From contig JANMDU010000058.1 in the NCBI GenBank assembly GCA_031376455.1, positions 45,388-109,387 on the forward strand: DNA of 64,000 bases, read 5' to 3'. Of this stretch, positions 284 to 62,270 are shown in pieces. This DNA comes from Variovorax sp. (GTDB lineage: Bacteria; Pseudomonadota; Gammaproteobacteria; Burkholderiales; Burkholderiaceae_C). A program made the position numbers and the translations under genes. How positions within the stretch are numbered: position 1 is the first letter of the stretch; each line of letters starts with the position of its first letter. The notes under the pieces were generated by a model. That model did not search any database. It was given only the letters and a program-made list of their open reading frames with translations, and was not told where the DNA came from.

Positions 284-348
284 TTTTTTAGGTCTTTTAG
301 GCAGTTAGCCGGCGTATTTATTGCGCAGAGTGCTATTAATTTTGGAGT
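280..348 (+). repeat. Family-1 ~68-bp element; left end overlaps the corA stop
   Basis: ggcagttagccggcgtatttattgcgcagagtgctattaattttggagt. Confidence 0.85.
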
Positions 349-4474: not shown

Positions 4475-4490
4475 GATCGACCGACATGAA

Positions 4491-4590
4491 GAACACGGAA
4501 GTCACGAAAGTAGGACGGAAGACACAGAAAACGGGACGCATTTTTCGTGCCTTCCGTGAAGTTTCCGTGTTTTCCGTGTTTTCCGTGTTC
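4491..4590. repeat. Family-2 palindromic element (CACGGAA type)
   Basis: Ends GAACACGGAA / TTCCGTGTTC; ~10-nt internal units. Confidence 0.85.
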
Positions 4591-4613
4591 TCCTATCACC
4601 CCGAAGAAAAATC

Positions 4614-18000: not shown

Positions 18001-18112
18001 GAACACGAAAGCCACGTAAATGACACGGAACACACAGAAGAAGAACGAAATGCATTTTTCTTTTCTCGGTTTTTTTTGTGATTTCCGTGCAACCTTCGTG
18101 CCTTCCGTGTTT
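18001..18112. repeat. Family-2 palindromic element (CACGGAA type)
   Basis: gaacacgaaagccacgtaaatgacacggaa...ttccgtgcaaccttcgtgccttccgtgtttc. Confidence 0.85.
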
Positions 18113-19497: not shown

Positions 19498-19581
19498 GAA
19501 TGCAAAAGACGCGAAAAGAAAAAAGCGATGCTTGGTTTTCTCTTTTGCGGCTTTTGCGAAATTTCTGCGCCTTTTGCGTTC
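19498..19581. repeat. Family-2 palindromic element (CGCAAAA type)
   Basis: gaatgcaaaagacgcgaaaag...cttttgcggcttttgcgaaatttctgcgccttttgcgttc. Confidence 0.8.
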
Positions 19582-22473: not shown

Positions 22474-22610
22474 GAACGCAAAATTCGCAAAAACTACGCA
22501 GAAGACGCAAAAGTACCCTGATGAATTTTGGGTGCGAATCATTTCAGCAATGAACACCTCAATCCGTTCCACTTTTGCGTCGTTTGCATATTTCTGTGAA
22601 TTTTGCGTTC
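22474..22610. repeat. Family-2 palindromic element (CGCAAAA type)
   Basis: 13-bp perfect ends GAACGCAAAATTC / GAATTTTGCGTTC; arms about 41 nt. Confidence 0.88.
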
Positions 22611-42008: not shown

Positions 42009-44149
42009 GAGAGCGTCCTTTTCAGATGATTTTCAGCGTAACGCACATACCAATCCAAGCAATCCGGGTTTGCCATGGCATCTTTGTTCACCACTTTCTC
42101 TAGCGGCTGCCCCAGCATGAGTTTCTTGATCGGTAGCTCTTGCTTTTTACCGCTCAAAGTGCGCGGAATGGCATCAACTTGTAACGTCTCATTGGGTACG
42201 AAGCGCGGCGAGAGTTGTTTGCGGATGGCATCGTGTATTTTTTCTTTCAACGCATCATCCAGCATGAGGCCGGGGCGCAGAGCGACGAACAGTGGCATGA
42301 AGCTCGCCTTGCCCAAGTATTCCAAATCCACCACCAAGGCATCGAGCACTTCAGGTAGCGCTTCTACCGCCGAATAAATCTCACTCGTGCCCATGCGCAA
42401 GCCCGCGCGATTGATCGTCGCGTCACTTCGGCCATAGATAGTGCAGCCGCCATCCGTGCCGATTTTGAGCCAATCGCCGTGTCGCCAGACAAGGCGCTTT
42501 TCTCCTTGCGAATTGATCGTACTGTACATATCGAAATAGCTGGAGAGATAGCGCTCGTTGCCCGCATCGCCCCAAAAATACAGCGGCATGGAAGGAATCG
42601 GCTGTGTACACACCAGCTCGCCCACTTCGCCGATGACCGGTTGGCCATCTTCATTCCAAGCCTCTACCGCGCAACCGAGCAAGCGGCATTGCATTTGGCC
42701 GGGAATTTGCACTAACTCACGATGACCGCCAATGAATGCACCGCAAAAATCTGTGCCACCGGAGATGTTGCACCAGAAGATTTCCCAAGCCCGTTCGCCC
42801 AGAGCTTGACTCGTCCTGAGCTCGTCGAAGGGTCGAAGGGTGTGCTGATGGAGAGCTGCAAATTGCTCCGATCCCCAGCGCTGCACGTCTTCCGCCAACG
42901 GCGAGCCTGTGGAGCCCAGCGCACGCACTTGCCGCAGTTCATGCCCCGCTGTTTGCAATGCACCTGCGCTCACACCCGCCTTCATACAGTTAGCCCAATA
43001 CGCAGCGCCCGCACCAAAAAATGTGCAGCGATGCCGCGCCACAAATCGCCAAAGAATCGTCCAATCCGGCGCATCTTTCGAGCCGGATGGCGAGCCGTCG
43101 TAAATGCAAATCGTCGTGCCAGTAGCCAGCCCTGCCATCTGCGCATTCCACATCACCCAGCCCGTGGAGCTGTACCAGTGGTAGCGCTCGCCCCAGCTGT
43201 TGGCGTGATAACTGCAGCCCACATCATTGCCCAGCGATTTCATCGCGAGCAACGTCAGCACAATACCTCCATGGCCATGCACGATGGGCTTGGGCAAGCC
43301 GGTGGTGCCACTGGAGTAAACAATCCACAGCGGATGATCAAAGGGCAGCATCTCGGGCTTGAAGGTATCAATTTCTAAGCCTTTTCGATGGGTAGCAGGC
43401 ATAAAATCTGCGCACAGTGCTATTGATTTAATAGTATTTGATATTGCCCAAGGCGTGCGGAGCACGAGCAGATGGCTCACGCTCGGCAGCCCTGCGCACA
43501 GCTCCTGTACCACGCCCGAGCGGTCAAGCGCTTTGCCTGCGTAATGCACGCCATCCACAGCAATCAACACCTTTGGCGTGATCTGCTTGAAGCGATCGAG
43601 CACAGCCGGTGTGCCCATATCCGGCGCACACACGCTCCACACTGCGCCGATGCTCATCGTCGCCAAGCAAGCCACAATCGTCTCAGGAATGTTAGGCATA
43701 TACGCTGCCACGCGATCCCCGCGCTGCACGCCCATCTCGCGCAACGTGATCGCTAGCGACGCCACTTGAGATTTCAATTCGGGCCAGCTGAGCTCACGAA
43801 TCTCTCCCAGCTCGTTCTCGCTGACGATGGCCATCATGCCCGCTGCGTGCGAATCTGAAGCATGCCGCAACACCTGCGCCGCATAGTTCACCTGCGCACC
43901 AGGAAACCACTTGGCCTGCGGCATGCGGTCATCGGCCAATGCCGCGCTGTACGGCGTGGGTGACTCAATCTCAAAGTAATCCCAAATCGATTGCCAAAAT
44001 GCATCCAGCTCCGTCACAGACCATTGCCAAAGCGCGTCATAGGTTTCAAAACGCAGGCCGCGCTCGCGAGCAAGCCAGTCTTGATACAGGCGAATTTGCG
44101 CAATATTGGGTGGGCAAGCCAGTGATGAAGGCGTTAAAGTCATGAGCAA
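42005..44149 (-). CDS. Acetoacetate-CoA ligase
   Basis: YDALWQWSV, YSSGTTGLPK, ISGGTD, GRSDATINR.G.R.G. Confidence 0.92.
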   Translation of the reverse strand: MLMTLTPSSLACPPNIAQIRLYQDWLARERGLRFETYDALWQWSVTELDAFWQSIWDYFEIESPTPYSAALADDRMPQAKWFPGAQVNYAAQVLRHASDSHAAGMMAIVSENELGEIRELSWPELKSQVASLAITLREMGVQRGDRVAAYMPNIPETIVACLATMSIGAVWSVCAPDMGTPAVLDRFKQITPKVLIAVDGVHYAGKALDRSGVVQELCAGLPSVSHLLVLRTPWAISNTIKSIALCADFMPATHRKGLEIDTFKPEMLPFDHPLWIVYSSGTTGLPKPIVHGHGGIVLTLLAMKSLGNDVGCSYHANSWGERYHWYSSTGWVMWNAQMAGLATGTTICIYDGSPSGSKDAPDWTILWRFVARHRCTFFGAGAAYWANCMKAGVSAGALQTAGHELRQVRALGSTGSPLAEDVQRWGSEQFAALHQHTLRPFDELRTSQALGERAWEIFWCNISGGTDFCGAFIGGHRELVQIPGQMQCRLLGCAVEAWNEDGQPVIGEVGELVCTQPIPSMPLYFWGDAGNERYLSSYFDMYSTINSQGEKRLVWRHGDWLKIGTDGGCTIYGRSDATINRAGLRMGTSEIYSAVEALPEVLDALVVDLEYLGKASFMPLFVALRPGLMLDDALKEKIHDAIRKQLSPRFVPNETLQVDAIPRTLSGKKQELPIKKLMLGQPLEKVVNKDAMANPDCLDWYVRYAENHLKRTLS
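42791..42840. repeat. REP-like CCGTTCG..GAGCT.GTCGAAGGG fragment, in-frame in acetoacetate-CoA ligase
   Basis: ccgttcgcccagagcttgac-tcgtcctgagctcgtcgaaggg-tcgaaggg; internal direct duplications. Confidence 0.55.
43368..43435 (+). repeat. Family-1 element, in-frame in acetoacetate-CoA ligase
   Basis: aatttctaagccttttcgatgggtagcaggcataaaatctgcgcacagtgctattgatttaatagt. Confidence 0.78.
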
Positions 44150-44813: not shown

Positions 44814-47800
44814 CTAGCAGAGCAGCCGCTTCAAATACTTCCCCGTATAACTCGCCTCACTCTGCGCCACCTGTTCCGGCGTGCCAACTGCAACCACTTG
44901 CCCGCCCCCCGAGCCGCCCTCAGGCCCCATGTCGATGAGCCAATCGGCGGTTTTGATCACGTCGAGGTTGTGTTCGATGATGACGATGGTGTTGCCTGCG
45001 TCTCGCAATTGATGGAGCACTTTCAAGAGCAATTCAATGTCTGCAAAGTGCAAGCCGGTGGTGGGTTCGTCCAAGATATAGAGCGTGCGGCCGGTGTCGC
45101 GTTTGCTGAGTTCGAGCGCGAGCTTGACGCGCTGGGCTTCGCCGCCGGAGAGCGTGGTGGCGCTTTGGCCGAGGCGGATGTAGCTCAATCCCACGTCGAG
45201 CAAAGTTTGCAGCTTGCGCGCAATCGTGGGCACCGTTTTAAAGAATTCGAAGGCATCGCCTACGGTGAGGTCAAGCATGGCCGCGATGTTTTTGCCTTTG
45301 TAGAGGACTTCCAAAGTCTCGCGGTTATAGCGCAAGCCTTTGCAGACATCGCAGGGCACATACACATCGGGCAAAAAGTGCATCTCCACTTTCACCACGC
45401 CATCGCCTTGGCAGGCTTCGCAGCGGCCACCGGCCACGTTAAAACTAAAGCGTCCTGCGCCGTAGCCGCGCTCTCGGGCGACGGGCATCTCAGCGAGCAA
45501 TTCTCTGATCGGCGTAAAGAGTCCGGTATACGTTGCTGGGTTGGAGCGCGGCGTGCGGCCAATCGGAGATTGATCGACGTTGATCACTTTGTCGAAATGC
45601 TCCAAGCCTTCCATCTCGGCATAAGGCGTGGGCTCATCGTGGCTGCGATAGAGGCTGCGCGAGACGGCTTTGTGCAGCGTGTCGTTGACCAGCGTCGATT
45701 TGCCTGAGCCAGAGACGCCGGTGACGCAGGTCATGAGGCCAACCGGAAAGTCAACGCTCACGTTTTTCAGATTGTTGCCCGTCGCGCCAATCAATCGGAG
45801 CAGCTGGAATTTCTCGTCTACCTTGATGGTGGGCTCTTTCTTCTTGTAAGTGCGCTCGGGGTAGCGAGATTTCGCAGCGTACACGACAGGCGCTTTGATC
45901 TGAAGCGGCAGCCAAGCGTGGCGTTTGCTTGGCACAGCGATTTGCCGCCGCCCGCTCATGAATTGCCCCGTGAGCGAGTCGGGCGCTTCTTCGATTTGCT
46001 TGGCCGTGCCCTGCGCAATGATGCGCCCGCCATGAATGCCTGCGCCCGGGCCAATGTCCACCACATAATCGGCCGCGCGAATCATGTCTTCATCATGCTC
46101 CACCACGATCACGCTGTTGCCCAAATTGCGCAAATGCTTCAGTGTGCTGATGAGGCGATCATTGTCGCGCTGATGCAAGCCAATGCTCGGCTCATCGAGC
46201 ACATACATCACGCCCGTCAGTCCGCTGCCGATTTGCGAGGCGAGGCGAATGCGCTGCGATTCGCCGCCCGATAAAGTCTCTGCGCTGCGCGAGAGGCTGA
46301 GATAACTCAAGCCCACATCGTTTAAGAATTTCAGTCGCGAAGCAATTTCTTTGATCACCTTGCCAGCGATCTCTGCTTTCGCGCCTGTCATCTTCAAGCT
46401 CTCAAAATAGCGCTGTGCTTCAATCAAAGTTGCGCTACCGATTTGGCTGATAGTCTTTGATTGCGATGCATCCTTTGAGTCAACCAGCCGCACATTGCGC
46501 GCTTCGCGCTTCAAGCGCGTGCCTTCGCAAGCCGTGCAAGGCTGCGTATGCCGATAGCGCGCTAAATCTTCTCGCACAAGGCTCGATTCCGTCTCCCGGT
46601 AGCGCCGCTCCATGTTGTGGATGATGCCCTCAAACGGATGCTTCTTCTTGACTTTTTTGCCCACAGACTCACCGCTTTCCATGGTGTAGTTGAAGGCAAT
46701 ATCTTCTTCGCCGCTGCCCTGCAAAATCACGCTCTGCACGTGCTCTGGCAACTCCTCAAACGCTTTTTCCACATCAAATTTATAGTGCTTCGCCAGCGAT
46801 TCGATTAAGGCAAAGTAATAGCCATTGCGCCGATCCCAGCCTTTGATTGCGCCGCTGGCCAACGACAAAGATGGAAAGGCCACGATGCGAGATGGATCAA
46901 AAAACTCCATCATCCCAATACCGTCACACGTCTCGCAAGCGCCCATGGGCGAGTTAAAAGAAAACAATCTTGGCTCTAGCTCGCCAATGGTGAAGGCGCA
47001 GACCGGGCAAGCAAATTTTGCGTTGAACCAATGCTCACTTGTCTTCTTGCCTACTTTTGTGGCTGATTTTTCAAGTGTTTTAGCCACTTCGCCGGCGTGT
47101 TTATTGCGCAAAACGCTATCATTTTCATCATCCATATTCACGGCAATCGCTCTGCCTTCAGCCAAGCGCAGCGCTGCTTCAAAGCTTTCAGCGAGCCGCT
47201 GTTTCATCTCCGGCTTGACTTTGAGTCGATCAATCACCACATCAATATCGTGCTTCTCGGTTTTCTTCAGCTTAGGCAGTTCATTGAATTCAAACATCTG
47301 CCCGTTGATCCGAAAGCGCACATACCCTCGCGCCTGCATATCCTCAAACACATCTGCGAACTCGCCCTTCTTCTCCCGCGCAATCGGCGCCAGAATCATC
47401 ACCTTTGCATCCTGCGGCCAAGCTAATACTGCATCCACCATTTGCGAAACCGTTTGCGATTGCAGCGGCAGCAAGTGATCCGGGCAATGCGGTGTGCCCG
47501 CGCGAGCAAACAGCAAGCGCAAGTAGTCGTGGATCTCGGTCACGGTGCCCACAGTCGAGCGCGGGTTGTGGCTCGTGGCCTTCTGCTCAATCGAAATCGC
47601 AGGCGACAAGCCTTCAATCACATCCACATCCGGCTTATCCATCAGCTGCAAAAACTGCCGCGCATAGGTCGACAAACTCTCCACATACCGCCGCTGCCCC
47701 TCGGCATACAGCGTGTCAAATGCCAGCGAAGATTTGCCCGAGCCCGACAAGCCCGTGATCACGACAAGTTGATTGCGCGGAATATCCAAATCCACATTTT

Positions 47801-47897
47801 TCAAATTGTGCGTTCGCGCCCCACGAATACTGATGTGGGTGTGCAGGGCTTGGCCGAGGTACGTGCCGTTTTGTGTGCTGTCAGCAGAGGAATTCAC
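44814..47897 (-). CDS. uvrA: Excinuclease ABC subunit A
   Basis: GARTHNLKN, two Walker A motifs ([16 protein letters not shown]), zinc fingers, LSGGEAQR. Confidence 0.98.
47064..47131 (+). repeat. Family-1 element, in-frame in uvrA
   Basis: gatttttcaagtgttttagccacttcgccggcgtgtttattgcgcaaaacgctatcattttcat. Confidence 0.85.
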
Positions 47898-47933
47898 AGT
47901 TTTACGCTTTTCAAAGTCAACCGAACATCATAG

Positions 47934-48065
47934 CGCGGATGGATTTTTTGCATCGCTTGTCTCAGTGCAGCATGTATGGCATTTGTGCCATGCCTGCTCT
48001 CGCCCTTGGCGGTTTGGTTGGTTGCCACTTGGGGCATAAAAACGCCGCCTCGGTCTCGGTCATGA
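47934..48065 (+). pseudogene. Possible relic of the 3' end of a YajR-like MFS gene
   Basis: Hydrophobic open stretch ...LAVWLVATWGIKTPP resembles the last MFS helix; sits at the usual uvrA-MFS-ssb position. Confidence 0.35.
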
Positions 48066-48162
48066 AAGCGCCGCTACGCTCTGCTGCATAATGCTTTTGC
48101 TACTCTTAGAAAGAGCAGCGCACTTCACCCAATTTAAGCACTGAAACATTAGGAACACACAC

Positions 48163-48687
48163 ATGGCCTCCGTCAACAAAGTCATTCTCATGGGCAACTG
48201 CGGGCGCGATCCCGAGATTCGTTATTTGCCCTCTGGCGGCGCGGTGGCCAATATCTCGATTGCCACATCCAGCAAACGCAAAGACAAAACCTCTGGCGAG
48301 ACGATTGAAGATACGCAGTGGCATCGCGTGACGTTCTACGACCGCTTGGCCGAGATCGTGGGCGAGTATGTGAAAAAGGGCAATCCTGTTTATGTCGAAG
48401 GCCGCTTGAAATACGGCAAATACACCGACAAAGACGGCATTGAGCGCAACACGGTAGATGTGGTGGCCACCGAGATGCAATTGCTTGGCGCTCGCCAAGG
48501 CGCGGGCTCGCCGGATGAAGGCGGCGGCGGTGGCGGTGGTGGTTACTCCCGCGCGCCTGCTCCAGCTTCGCGCCCACCCGCAGCCCGCCCAGGTTCTATG
48601 CCTGCCAGCTCTGCGTCTTCCGGTGCAGCGCCCAAAGCCAAGGCAGGCACTGGCTTTGACGACATGGATGACGATATTCCGTTTTGA
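48163..48687 (+). CDS. ssb: Single-stranded DNA-binding protein
   Basis: [11 protein letters not shown]-rich linker, acidic DDDIPF tail. Confidence 0.98.
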
Positions 48688-48718: not shown

Positions 48719-48811
48719 GAACACGGAGAGCACGGAAGTTGCACGAAAGACACCAAAAAAGAGAGATGCTTTTTCCGTGCTTTTCGTGAAATATTTGTGA
48801 CTTCCGTGTTC
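48719..48811. repeat. Family-2 palindromic element (CACGGAA type)
   Basis: gaacacggagagcacggaagttgcacgaaag...ttccgtgcttttcgtg...cttccgtgttc. Confidence 0.85.
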
Positions 48812-48834
48812 TTTATGTTTGAGCACAATAAGCC

Positions 48835-49719
48835 TTGAATACCCGCCTAGTCCTTTATCTCGATCTGATTCGTTGGAATCGCCCGGCTGGCTGGCTGCTG
48901 CTGCTGTGGCCGACGCTCTCTGCTTTATGGATTGCAGCCGGCGGCTTCCCAGGATGGCATTTGATCATCGTGTTTACTTTAGGCACGATCCTTATGCGTA
49001 GCGCTGGCTGTTGTGTCAACGATGTTGCCGACGCAGATTTTGACAAGCATGTGAAGCGCACCGCTGGGCGACCTGTCACCAGTGGCAAAGTAAGCAAAAA
49101 AGAAGCGCTACTGCTTGGCGCTTGCCTATCTCTGCTGGCTTTCGGCTTCGTGCTCACCACGAATTTGCTCACGGTGCTGTATTCGTTTGCCGCGCTAGCG
49201 ATCACGCTCGCGTATCCCTTCGCCAAGCGCTTCGTTGCGATGCCGCAAGCCGTGCTCGGCGTCGCATTCAGCTTCGGGATTCCGATGGCCTTCGCTGCAG
49301 TATCGGGCGGCAACTCGCTAAACGAGTTGCAAGGCGGTGTATCCAAACTCGCTTGGATTTTGCTGCTTGGTAATCTCTTCTGGGTGCTTGCCTACGACAC
49401 GGAATACGCCATGGTGGATCGGGATGATGATCTGCGCATCGGCATGAAAACATCGGCCATCACGCTCGGGCGCTTTGATGTAGCCGCTATCATGCTTTTT
49501 TATGGTGTTTATATGCTTTTTTGGCTGATAGCCGGCATAGAATCTGCGCAAAATGCTATCAAATTAGTAGTATTGATCAGCATGAGTGGGCAAATCTTTT
49601 GGCATTGGCAGCTCATCCGCACGCGCTCGCGCGAGGGCTGTTTCAAAGCGTTTCGACTCAATCACTGGCTCGGTTTGACGCTGTTTATCGGCATCGTTGC
49701 AGCCAGCTTGGTCAAGTAA
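48835..49719 (+). CDS. ubiA: 4-hydroxybenzoate octaprenyltransferase
   Basis: [32 protein letters not shown]. Confidence 0.95.
49504..49571 (+). repeat. Family-1 element, in-frame in ubiA
   Basis: ttttttggctgatagccggcatagaatctgcgcaaaatgctatcaaattagtagt. Confidence 0.82.
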
Positions 49720-55444: not shown

Positions 55445-56830
55445 ATGACAAGCTTTCATTCGCTAGGCCATTCACCACTCAATCGCCGCAGCTTGATCGC
55501 GCAAGCCATGGCGCTTGGCGCAAGCGGCTTGATGAGTGGGCAAGTGTTGGCCCAGCGCGCACCGAGCGGCTCGCCAGCAGGCGCGTTGAATCAAGGCCGG
55601 ATGGTGGTTGTCTTCCTGCGCGGCGCGTATGACGGGCTCTCAGCGCTTGTGCCCTATGCGGATAAAAATTACTACGCCATGCGTCCGAATATCGCCATCG
55701 CCGCGCCCGATGGCTCGCGCGAGACGGCGCTCAGACTCGATGATCGTTTTGCCATGCATCCCGCACTCTCGCCCCTCATGCCGCTGTGGAATGAGGGCTC
55801 ACTCGGCGTGATTGCCAGCGCTGGCTTGGCTACGCCGAATCGCTCGCATTTTGATGCGCAGTATTTGATGGAGATTGGTTTGCAAGAGAAGAGCAGCACG
55901 CCGATGGGCTGGCTCAACAAGCTCTCAGCCAGCAGCGCAGGCTCAGCACTTGGCGTGGGCGAGGCCAATCCGGCGATTCTCTCAGGCCAAGCCGCTGTCA
56001 AGCTGATCCCGCGTGGGGATGCCGCTGCGCGCACCGGCGTGTTGGCCAACGAGAAACAACGCAGCGCCTTGATGGATTTGTATGCGGGCAATGACACGGT
56101 CAGCGAAGCATTTCGCCAAGGCGCGGGCAGCCGTATGCAGACCTCGCAAGAGCTCATCAATGAGCGCAATATGCGCACCGCGAATGCCAACGCCAATGCG
56201 GAAATAGACGGGATGGCCAATACAAACAATCGGCGCATGCTTGACAAACATGGCACGCCGCAAACCACTGCGGCACAAGCGGCACAAATGCAAGCTGCCA
56301 GCAATGGCGCGGCAGACCCTGTCGGCCTCGCTCTTGATGCTCAACACCTCGCCACGCTTATGCGCAACGATCCCAAACTGCGCCTTGGCTTCCTATCCGC
56401 CGGCGGCTGGGATACGCATGCCAATCAGGGCAATGCGGTGGGTGGCTTGGCCAATAATTTAGGCAATCTCGCACGCGGTCTGGCGCAATTGCGTAGCGAA
56501 TTCGATCAAAGTGGCGATCTCATCATCGTCATGAGCGAATTTGGCCGCACGAGCGCAGAAAACGGCACAAAGGGCACCGATCACGGCTTTGGCAACGCGC
56601 TCTGGCTGATCGGCAACCGTGTGCAAGGCGGCAAAGTGCATGGACTGTGGACGGGGCTTGCTCGTGGCAACTTAAACGACAACCGCGATCTGCCTGCACA
56701 TCACGATTACCGCGCCGTACTCGCGCAGGCTCTGCGCAGCACGTTTGCATTGCCTGATTCCCAGTTGCAAACGCTGCTGCCCGGTAGCAATTGGGATCAG
56801 CGCCTAGATGGATTATTTCGTAAAACTTAA
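55445..56830 (+). CDS. DUF1501 family protein, Tat-like leader
   Basis: NRRSLI leader; FLRGAYDGL, SHFDAQ, GGWDTH, SEFGRT, GTDHG. Confidence 0.92.
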   Translation: MTSFHSLGHSPLNRRSLIAQAMALGASGLMSGQVLAQRAPSGSPAGALNQGRMVVVFLRGAYDGLSALVPYADKNYYAMRPNIAIAAPDGSRETALRLDDRFAMHPALSPLMPLWNEGSLGVIASAGLATPNRSHFDAQYLMEIGLQEKSSTPMGWLNKLSASSAGSALGVGEANPAILSGQAAVKLIPRGDAAARTGVLANEKQRSALMDLYAGNDTVSEAFRQGAGSRMQTSQELINERNMRTANANANAEIDGMANTNNRRMLDKHGTPQTTAAQAAQMQAASNGAADPVGLALDAQHLATLMRNDPKLRLGFLSAGGWDTHANQGNAVGGLANNLGNLARGLAQLRSEFDQSGDLIIVMSEFGRTSAENGTKGTDHGFGNALWLIGNRVQGGKVHGLWTGLARGNLNDNRDLPAHHDYRAVLAQALRSTFALPDSQLQTLLPGSNWDQRLDGLFRKT

Positions 56831-56888
56831 AGCGTTTTTGGCAGTTCGCCGGCGTATTTATTGCGTAAAGTGCTATTCTTTTTGCAGT
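56821..56888 (+). repeat. Family-1 element; left end overlaps the DUF1501 stop
   Basis: tttttggcagttcgccggcgtatttattgcgtaaagtgctattctttttgcagt. Confidence 0.88.
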
Positions 56889-62154: not shown

Positions 62155-62230
62155 GAACGCGCAAGACACACAAGATACCTTCTCGGTTTTTTCTGTGACT
62201 TCCGTGCAAATCTCCGTGATTTCCGTGTTC
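62155..62230. repeat. Family-2 palindromic element (CACGGAA type, left arm eroded)
   Basis: ...ttctgtgacttccgtgcaaatctccgtgatttccgtgttc. Confidence 0.78.
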
Positions 62231-62270
62231 TTCTGTTTGAATGAGTCGACCACTCATTTCGTACCTGACA

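Follow-up and report, generated by a model that had tools for sequence, protein, structure and literature searches.

How did a copy of a dispersed DNA repeat come to be read as protein inside UvrA, and what has become of it since? The locus lies in a stretch of 64,000 nucleotides (the window; contig JANMDU010000058.1, positions 45,388 to 109,387) of a metagenome-assembled genome (MAG) of 3.4 Mb in 160 contigs, referred to here as G000, with codes of the type G001 for the genomes compared with it. The host belongs to a freshwater genus of Comamonadaceae, the genomes of which are labelled by NCBI as 'Variovorax sp.' or as Comamonadaceae MAGs (freshwater/stream); one of them, G014, labelled 'Variovorax sp. 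PCZ-1', is that of an isolate. The repeat, which we call family 1, has a copy within uvrA. The explanation that we favour, with a probability of roughly 80%, is that a single family-1 copy entered uvrA in frame and was then kept as a neutral passenger loop.

The features at the centre of the argument are these, with the limits of the uvrA copy set from the consensus and the orthologues and with residues counted from the GTG at 47897:

44814-47897, minus strand: uvrA, 1027 codons from a putative GTG start at 47897 (open reading frame list, Pfam and structure matches)
47130-47147, minus strand: upstream strand of the hairpin (AIAVNM + D), end of the UvrB-binding domain (AlphaFold2 strand; alignment with Bacillus stearothermophilus UvrA)
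47067-47129, plus strand (antisense to uvrA): family-1 copy in uvrA, 63 nt, 21 codons, UvrA residues 257-277
47037-47066, minus strand: species-specific extension of the loop, 10 codons, residues 278-287, absent or different in other carriers
47001-47036, minus strand: downstream strand of the hairpin and first CxxC of the zinc module (AlphaFold2 strand; alignment with B. stearothermophilus UvrA)
287-348, plus strand: intergenic family-1 copy of the same subtype as the uvrA copy (TTTT / GTATTTAT variant), E=3.6e-13
56827-56887, plus strand: intergenic family-1 copy of the same subtype as the uvrA copy, E=3.7e-10, with TCG for TAG as in the uvrA copy

The identity of the gene is secure. Its product contains the UvrA_inter (PF17760, residues 148-253) and UvrA_DNA-bind (PF17755, residues 334-446) domains along with the ABC domains (ABC_tran), has the two ABC ATPase modules and the zinc modules of UvrA, and matches the solved UvrA structures 2r6f and 3zqj with E=2e-56. 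The CxxC motifs are invariant, including C164/C167 of the downstream strand and zinc module in the UvrA alignment (A1).

That the sequence within uvrA is a member of family 1 was established with a profile built by nhmmer from the copies in the window and iterated over the whole G000 assembly. It matches at 47069-47127 on the plus strand (E=6.3e-9, model positions 1-59 of 64), and the blocks TTTTnAAG, GCCGGC, TGCGC and GCTA are all present. An 18-nt core, GCCGGCGTRTTTATTGCG, occurs exactly at 308, 47091 and 56848, and with up to three mismatches it is found eight times against 0.21 expected. An earlier, sequence-only reading of the window had pointed to this copy through a 38-mer, which is indeed present and agrees at 30 of its 38 positions with each of two intergenic copies, 301-338 and 56841-56878; over the whole element the agreement is 49/68 and 48/68 (~72% over 68 nt). 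The limits given there, 47064-47131, were right to within 2-3 nt, and the translation and its being in frame with UvrA stand as given. To call the copy near-intact was too generous. In G000 the terminal hairpin is broken, the 3' RTAGC arm that orthologous copies keep having gone, and the copy scores 37 bits as against 45 in G005 and G013.

The history of the site was traced by searching for the 266-residue segment around the copy in 40 relatives and aligning the matches. The site is empty, with a loop of six residues (EMDTQK-EH and similar), in G010, G012 and G002 of the same genus and in most of the other genera sampled. Ten congeners carry an insert of 18 codons (+54 nt), alike in position and frame, with region lengths that are multiples of three; the alignment of close relatives thus bore out the earlier expectation of an insertion, put there at ~20-25 amino acids. 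In DNA alignment the empty site of G010 reads TTTCTGCGTA between CTC and TCC. The gap relative to G020 and G021 is 28 residues. G000 has 10 further codons, where the other carriers have SAGNAG, SG, SQENELVS, TTFAG or nothing. The possibility that these 10 codons are a partial duplicate of the element was considered and rejected, the similarity not being significant (p ~0.4-0.5). Scored against the family profile, the orthologous inserts reach 31-45 bits in G005, G013, G014, G008, G004, G011 and G001, 18.5 bits in G007 and 8 bits in G003, with no match in G009. The insert is also present in G013, with a frameshift just downstream. In that genome (locus L013; G013:C283, ~1783-2561) the frameshift lies a few codons downstream of the copy, and either an assembly error in this 76%-complete MAG or a broken uvrA would account for it.

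In a tree of one protein, UvrA, calculated after removal of the insert columns, the uninserted species are basal and the carriers fall together, so that the insert maps as one gain. The insertion event is old, because the carriers differ from one another in the rest of uvrA by a mean synonymous divergence (dS) of 0.88, with a proportion of synonymous differences (pS) of 0.45-0.57. It is nevertheless late for the family. When the copies of G000 were mapped onto 360 kb of G010 in tight synteny, 40 of 46 had a clear partner, four had a weak or same-sized degenerate one, and only two were missing from this basal species, namely the uvrA copy and one intergenic copy. In the reverse direction 55 of 60 copies had a partner and the other five fell on same-sized degenerate sites. 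The uvrA copy is therefore old, yet younger than most of family 1. Its description as recent-looking holds only relative to the family: the gain lies at the base of a 10-species clade, at a dS of ~0.9.

The place of the insert in the protein is clear from the alignment. It falls between residues 254 and 261 of B. stearothermophilus UvrA, at the end of the UvrB-binding domain and before the first CxxC, where the solved UvrA structures have a six-residue hairpin turn; the sequence-only reading had likewise placed it where UvrA normally has a short hairpin. The segment was modelled by AlphaFold2 from an alignment with 38 homologues. The domain has a predicted local distance difference test (pLDDT) score above 90, while the insert, residues 126-152, lies between strands 116-121 and 155-159 and scores below 50. 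In our reading the insert is a surface loop that is tolerated, hydrophilic and probably disordered. The ratio of non-synonymous to synonymous divergence (dN/dS) is relaxed, at 0.61 in the insert compared with 0.079 in the rest of uvrA, and between species the number of extra residues varies from 18 to 28; selection on the insert at the protein level is weak. The dS of the insert is 0.57 against 0.88 for the rest of the gene, a figure based on ~14 synonymous sites. Unrelated expansions of 4-31 residues occur in this same loop in many other genera.

The frame in which the copy is read is one of the rarer ones. Of the 444 copies lying wholly in genes, 193 and 154 are in the two phases in which the consensus is open, and the remaining phases have 41, 21, 21 and 14. 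The uvrA copy belongs to a class of 21 (xYxxDSxLRNxYAGExPK), also seen in pyrD, dnaG, tsaB and pncB and, by reading of the sequence, in pyruvate dehydrogenase E1; it was rightly recognised earlier as being in a different frame from the two dominant ones. The consensus has two stops in this frame, which is open in only 25% of intergenic copies and in 10 of the 10 in-frame carriers. Because it has stayed open in all ten carriers despite those two stops, it can be argued that the insert is translated, and the loop is presumably made in vivo. Nothing indicates that the function of UvrA is altered, and functional neutrality seems the natural inference.

A second variable site was seen in UvrA after DVVIDRLKV(K/R), equivalent to window positions 47590-47620. 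G000 has no insert there; inserts of 20-50 residues (HAPVRSDPVEGPVEVQAGSARTEYDN and similar) are found in G007 and in several Rhodoferax-labelled genomes (loci L012/L038, L072, L085, L088, L090, L091 and L106).

What, then, is family 1? The G000 assembly contains 979 copies, divided between the two strands as 511 and 468. The unit, delimited by the information profile of 528 ungapped copies, is ~66 nt long with sharp edges, and its consensus, aTTTTTAAGCaaaatnGGCnnnTAGCCGGCATAGAATCTGCGCAGAGTGCTATTAAATTAATAGCAa, has six conserved blocks over ~66 bp. Pairwise identity between copies averages 62% and reaches 94% at most, with a median of 80% to the nearest neighbour and no identical pair. G000 has 408 exact occurrences of the core pattern GCCGGC-N8-TGCGC-N5-GCTA, which is present in 15 of 15 genomes of the genus and in 0 of 26 sampled from other genera. 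There are two independently assorting sub-variants, AAA or TTT at model positions 10-12 and ATAGAATC or GTATTTAT at positions 29-36; the uvrA copy has the combination of TTT with GTATTTAT in common with the two intergenic copies that match it best. We found no description of the repeat in Comamonadaceae in the literature.

Across the family no target-site duplication was detected above expectation for k=3-6 at every boundary offset, and there is none at the uvrA junctions. As the loop has diverged too far among the three species with an empty site and no duplication is present at uvrA or family-wide, the exact junctions sought by the sequence-only reading are not definable to the nucleotide. 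Inspection of the consensus ends revealed no terminal inverted repeat. The terminal hairpin, GCTAY-N7-RTAGC, is AT-rich and of 5-8 bp. Real copies fold no better than shuffled ones (z from -0.4 to -1.3, the mRNA strand of uvrA giving +0.6); the antisense consensus alone reaches z=-2.6. There is no long-range covariation among the 528 copies, the highest mutual information being between the neighbouring columns that define AAA/TTT and ATAGAATC/GTATTTAT. A structured RNA or single-stranded DNA was accordingly rejected as a reading of family 1, there being no covariation, folding at the level of shuffles and no Rfam family anywhere in the window. A partner among the REP-associated tyrosine transposases (RAYT; REP, repetitive extragenic palindrome) or IS200 elements was rejected as well: the single PF01797 (Y1_Tnp) gene of G000, C79:5354-6055, is flanked by GACAAATTAAATAGGGTCAGA-type repeats and has no family-1 copy within 1 kb of it. 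That gene, with three direct copies of the GACAAATTAAATAGGGTCAGA-type repeat upstream and an inverted pair downstream (C79:5054-6355), is a separate REP-like system. A phage origin was also discarded, as IMG/VR holds 112 single matches to the core pattern, near chance by our own rough estimate.

The distribution of the copies was examined using crude gene calls made in this analysis (3048 genes, 87.6% coding). By these, 444 copies lie wholly in genes, 148 cross gene ends and 387 are intergenic; a stricter test, by which both flanks had to show coding signal in one and the same frame, leaves 303 in genes, giving a range of ~300-440. The intergenic copies are a median of ~20 nt from the nearest stop codon and have no orientation bias. 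Convergent spacers are enriched for them (110 of 361 copies, in the 14% of spacers that are convergent) and divergent spacers, with 29, are depleted. Copies avoid one another, with 3 close pairs against 31 expected, and their spacing is slightly over-even. With ~444 in-gene copies, ~0.46 would be expected by chance in a gene of 3.1 kb, so the presence of one in a repair gene requires no special explanation, and the emphasis once placed on a core repair gene as a target falls away. A promoter within the uvrA copy for antisense or ssb transcription was considered and rejected, since there is no sigma-70-like site in 46800-48200 and the family is placed on the terminator side of genes.

Several other loci stand out in the distribution. 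C28 (12098-16583), C134 (5394-7391), C159 (40952-43503) and C138:109996-110978 have single open reading frames of 1000-1450 codons with two or three family-1 copies each. The longest copy-free stretches are C126:1-34939 and C39:1693-30640 (35 and 29 kb, G+C 53-54%); they may have been acquired recently, as would suit a motif that builds up only with the time DNA has spent in the genome.

Many of the copies in genes have not lengthened their hosts. Two in the window are instructive:

43373-43435, plus strand: family-1 copy, in frame (antisense), in an acetoacetyl-CoA-synthetase-like gene; same site in G005, G014 and G010
49510-49571, plus strand: family-1 copy, in frame (sense), in ubiA, E=3.1e-14, 54 bits; no net length change relative to other genera

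In ubiA there are 39 residues between GRFDV and WH(W/Y) both in G000 and in three other genera, so that the copy replaces sequence and does not add to it. When 27 host proteins were aligned across the copy with 400 kb of the outgroup G021, a comparison that mixes orthologues and paralogues, the median net gain was 3 residues; 18 of the 27 had at most 5 extra residues and 3 had at least 15. For the pairs with at least 45% identity the differences were -4, 0, 0, 0, 4, 7, 8, 9, 20 and 22 residues. At three sites without indels, C10:20975, C144:84478 and C132:2282, G000 agrees with the consensus at the differing positions by 22:0, 19:2 and 23:2, a bias to which its lower G+C contributes. The uvrA copy is thus one of a minority of whole-unit net insertions, and because many in-gene copies add no length, insertion is not the only way in which the family arises.

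The orthologous copies also differ in concert. Where G000 has CCGGCAT the copies of G010 have CCGTTAT: of 53 orthologous pairs, 32 are GTT in G010 and GGC in G000, four are GGC in both and none is the reverse. The counts of the two forms of the pattern, GGC:GTT, over whole genomes are:

G000, 408:6
G014, 473:4
G010, 51:139
G007, 84:102
G003, 9:16

Ten of 20 in-gene pairs differ in this way, and in the two that were translated the residues change, G to V in ubiA and MP to IT in the acetoacetyl-CoA-synthetase-like gene (acs), both copies being at the same site in G010 and in its GTT dialect. Neighbouring variable positions retain locus-specific states across orthologous copies. The codons of the uvrA copy are GCC GGC in seven crown species, AAC GGG in G007 (CCCGTT on the element strand) and AAG GGT in G003. 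From these sequences the uvrA copy appears to have followed the motif of its lineage after entry, which suggests a DNA-level process acting on all copies.

The favoured explanation can now be given in full. One family-1 copy would have entered uvrA once, in the common ancestor of a subclade of 10-11 species, antisense to the gene and in a phase by chance free of stops. It would have gone into the beta-hairpin turn with which the UvrB-binding domain closes, before the first CxxC, for a net gain of 18 codons, and would have been transcribed and translated within UvrA ever since. In-frame indels, among them the 10 extra codons of G000, would have come later, and the copy would then have taken on the motif of its lineage, CCGTTAT-like in G007 and G003 and GCCGGC in the crown species. 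Because there is no target-site duplication, terminal inverted repeat or associated transposase, we favour entry by illegitimate or microhomology-guided recombination that copied another member over classical transposition.

Some observations sit less easily with this explanation. Support for the deep nodes of the UvrA tree is weak, and G010 and two carrier lineages form a trichotomy. The profile match covers 59-63 nt while the net gain is 54 nt, so either the element took the place of ~10 nt of native loop or its ends are similar to the target by coincidence; TTTCTGCGTA of G010 matches the 5' end of the element at 8 of 12 positions. Many in-gene copies, as described above, involve no net insertion at all. 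No RNA run was found to hold the sequence. Finally, a similar-looking insert occurs in the same loop in another genus. Two MAGs labelled Rhodoferax sp. (L047:1831-1980 and L041:1831-1980) have 17 residues there (SENDSGLRNADKGLSAK and similar), and the DNA of L047 shares ATTGCG-AAA-CGCTATC-TTTTC with the insert of the genus and finds weak relatives elsewhere within that genome; the site and frame may have been hit independently a second time, the insert may have been exchanged laterally, or its origin may be older. G018 has a doubtful case, an insert of 31 residues with a match of only 12/14 nt.

Could the loop have come first and the motif later, an unrelated expansion of 18 codons having been turned in situ into something resembling a family-1 copy through DNA-level drive or conversion? 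Such remodelling is documented at the three sites without indels and ubiA holds its 54-bit copy with no change in length, expansions unrelated to family 1 are frequent in this very loop in other genera, and the early-branching carriers G007, G003 and G009 score poorly or not at all. The insert is, however, the size of one element, as are the other clear net insertions of +20 and +22 residues, and in most carriers the alignment to the profile runs colinearly through 59-63 of 64 positions, AT-rich spacers included. No carrier has an unrelated 18-codon loop, and the low scores of G007 and G003 arise in part because a GTT-type copy was compared with a GGC-type profile. Taken together this makes a loop-first history quite unlikely. 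A trivial origin, by chance resemblance or a mis-join in a MAG of 160 contigs, in which repeats are a classic source of mis-assembly, is refuted: the match has E=6.3e-9 genome-wide and reaches 45 bits in orthologues, the insert is found in ten species including the isolate G014, and contigs of four independent metagenome assemblies (runs X1, X2, X3 and X5) span both junctions and match the stretch without gaps, as does the genome of G014.

The remaining alternatives concern why the copy has been kept. It might serve as a DNA-level recognition site for a trans-acting protein, whether uptake-signal-like, nucleoid or structural, the loop being merely permissive. The near-static positions of the copies (55 of 60 from G010 and 40 of 46 from G000 with a partner at the same site), the one-way shift between dialects at the expense of residues wherever checked (acs, ubiA), with locus-specific states retained alongside, the lower dS of the insert, and the equal orientations and avoidance of close pairs would all be in keeping with this, as would the precedent of uptake sequences, in which origin in place goes together with dialects and with coding copies (PMC1626085, PMC2817400, PMC3630211). 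Yet a composite unit of 66 nt exceeds by far the length of every known uptake sequence, motifs that arise by point mutation would not be expected to give net insertions like that in uvrA, the contrast in dS comes from very few sites, the binding factor is putative, and in G009 the motifs have been lost from the uvrA copy and the loop persists. We regard this as possible, though on the unlikely side. It is very unlikely that the insert is kept for an effect on UvrA itself, by tuning the binding of UvrB or Mfd or by giving a mutator phenotype. It does adjoin the UvrB/Mfd-binding domain and is in frame in ten species, and the idea has been raised for REP-tagged uvrA, uvrB and recBCD (Di Nocera et al, 2013; PMC3733652), but the high dN/dS, the free length of 18-28 extra residues, the low confidence of the predicted structure and the ~0.46 copies expected by chance all speak against it.

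For the family as a whole a broader reading may tentatively be put forward: family 1 might be a long composite DNA recognition motif, made and kept at fixed positions by a directional process, with the uvrA copy a rare, datable gain of a whole unit. The process could be an uptake-signal-like molecular drive or a nuclease- or template-guided short-patch conversion; it may overwrite native codons in hundreds of genes and shift the family from GCCGGC to GCCGTT within a lineage. If so, the uvrA copy may exemplify a motif kept and re-written in a core repair gene at the protein's expense.

In itself the uvrA copy adds one more case of a protein loop that tolerates a small repeat, and there is a precedent in uvrA in the literature. 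The unusual part is family 1, with its many length-neutral in-gene copies and its concerted switch of motif, and the nature of the family is the more interesting question. For that question the uvrA copy provides a dated marker of a repeat family whose changes run in parallel in different species, a calibrated case with an empty site, a filled site, ten independently evolving descendants and one cultured carrier (PCZ-1). It bears on whether the peptide is made and is neutral, on how a repeat can enter a gene without a transposase, duplication or hairpin, and on whether the concerted switch of motif also rewrites a copy of known age. Were family 1 a driven or protein-bound signal, the shaping of genomes in the manner of uptake sequences would extend to a much longer motif and to Comamonadaceae, and a DNA-level force would be reshaping about a tenth of the proteins of a free-living bacterium.

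A second repeat family was seen in the window. It consists of units of ~9-10 nt (TTCCGTG / TTTTGCG and complements) in long palindromes at 4484-4594, 18071-18111, 19542-19581, 22474-22513, 48770-48818 and 62188-62234, and one of the palindromes lies between ssb and ubiA, adjoining uvrA.

How does family 1 compare with known systems? The Rickettsia palindromic elements (RPE; Ogata et al, 2000), as recounted in PMC10969869 and PMC3733652, are in-frame repeats in unrelated housekeeping genes. Their copies are described there as extra surface peptides compatible with the fold, in particular phases, inherited vertically and common to several species. Family 1 resembles them in being a small non-coding repeat family with many in-frame copies in genes, and the uvrA copy is an in-frame insertion in what is probably a surface loop. 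It differs in its length (66 nt compared with 100-150), in having no stable palindrome, in its occurrence in a free-living betaproteobacterial genus and in its far more numerous in-gene copies (~300-440), many of which add no length. Homology to RPE-1 to RPE-10 is judged unlikely from the taxonomic distance.

For REPs there is a direct parallel, since intragenic copies have been reported in frame inside uvrA of Thioalkalivibrio and Opitutus terrae (Di Nocera et al, 2013; PMC3733652). Family 1 is similar to them in lying just after stop codons, more often between convergent genes and less often between divergent ones. It is not, however, a palindrome of 20-40 nt with a terminal GTAG/CGTC tag, its end motif RTAGC being part of a weak AT-rich hairpin; its copies avoid each other and form no pairs like those of bacterial interspersed mosaic elements (BIMEs), and no cognate RAYT gene is flanked by it. 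The REP or palindromic units (PU) of Escherichia coli and Salmonella were reportedly found by Gilson et al. in 1987 to be species-specific, which the species-specific consensus of family 1 recalls. [quoted passage not shown] Family 1 is likewise a short dispersed repeat fused in frame with host genes, but has no terminal inverted repeats, no target-site duplication, no parent insertion sequence found and no near-identical copies. By their defining properties family 1 is thus not a REP, an RPE or a MITE, though it is REP-like in placement.

The DNA uptake sequences, namely the uptake signal sequences (USS) of Pasteurellaceae and the DUS of Neisseriaceae, provide the remaining comparison. For these an in-place origin has been tested (PMC1626085), coding copies are in preferred frames (PMC2817400) and dialects are known (PMC3630211). 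Their core of 9-12 nt (~30 nt when extended) contrasts with the ~66 nt and six blocks of family 1, which is five times longer, and some family-1 copies, that of uvrA included, are net insertions of whole units. In sequence properties the likeness otherwise covers several points: family 1 numbers about a thousand copies, in either orientation, of which at least a third are coding and in preferred frames; many of its in-gene copies may have arisen in place, going by their small or absent gaps relative to outgroup proteins (the mixed comparison with G021 described above, a test of the kind used in PMC1626085); and its copies are kept at orthologous sites with dialects specific to each lineage.

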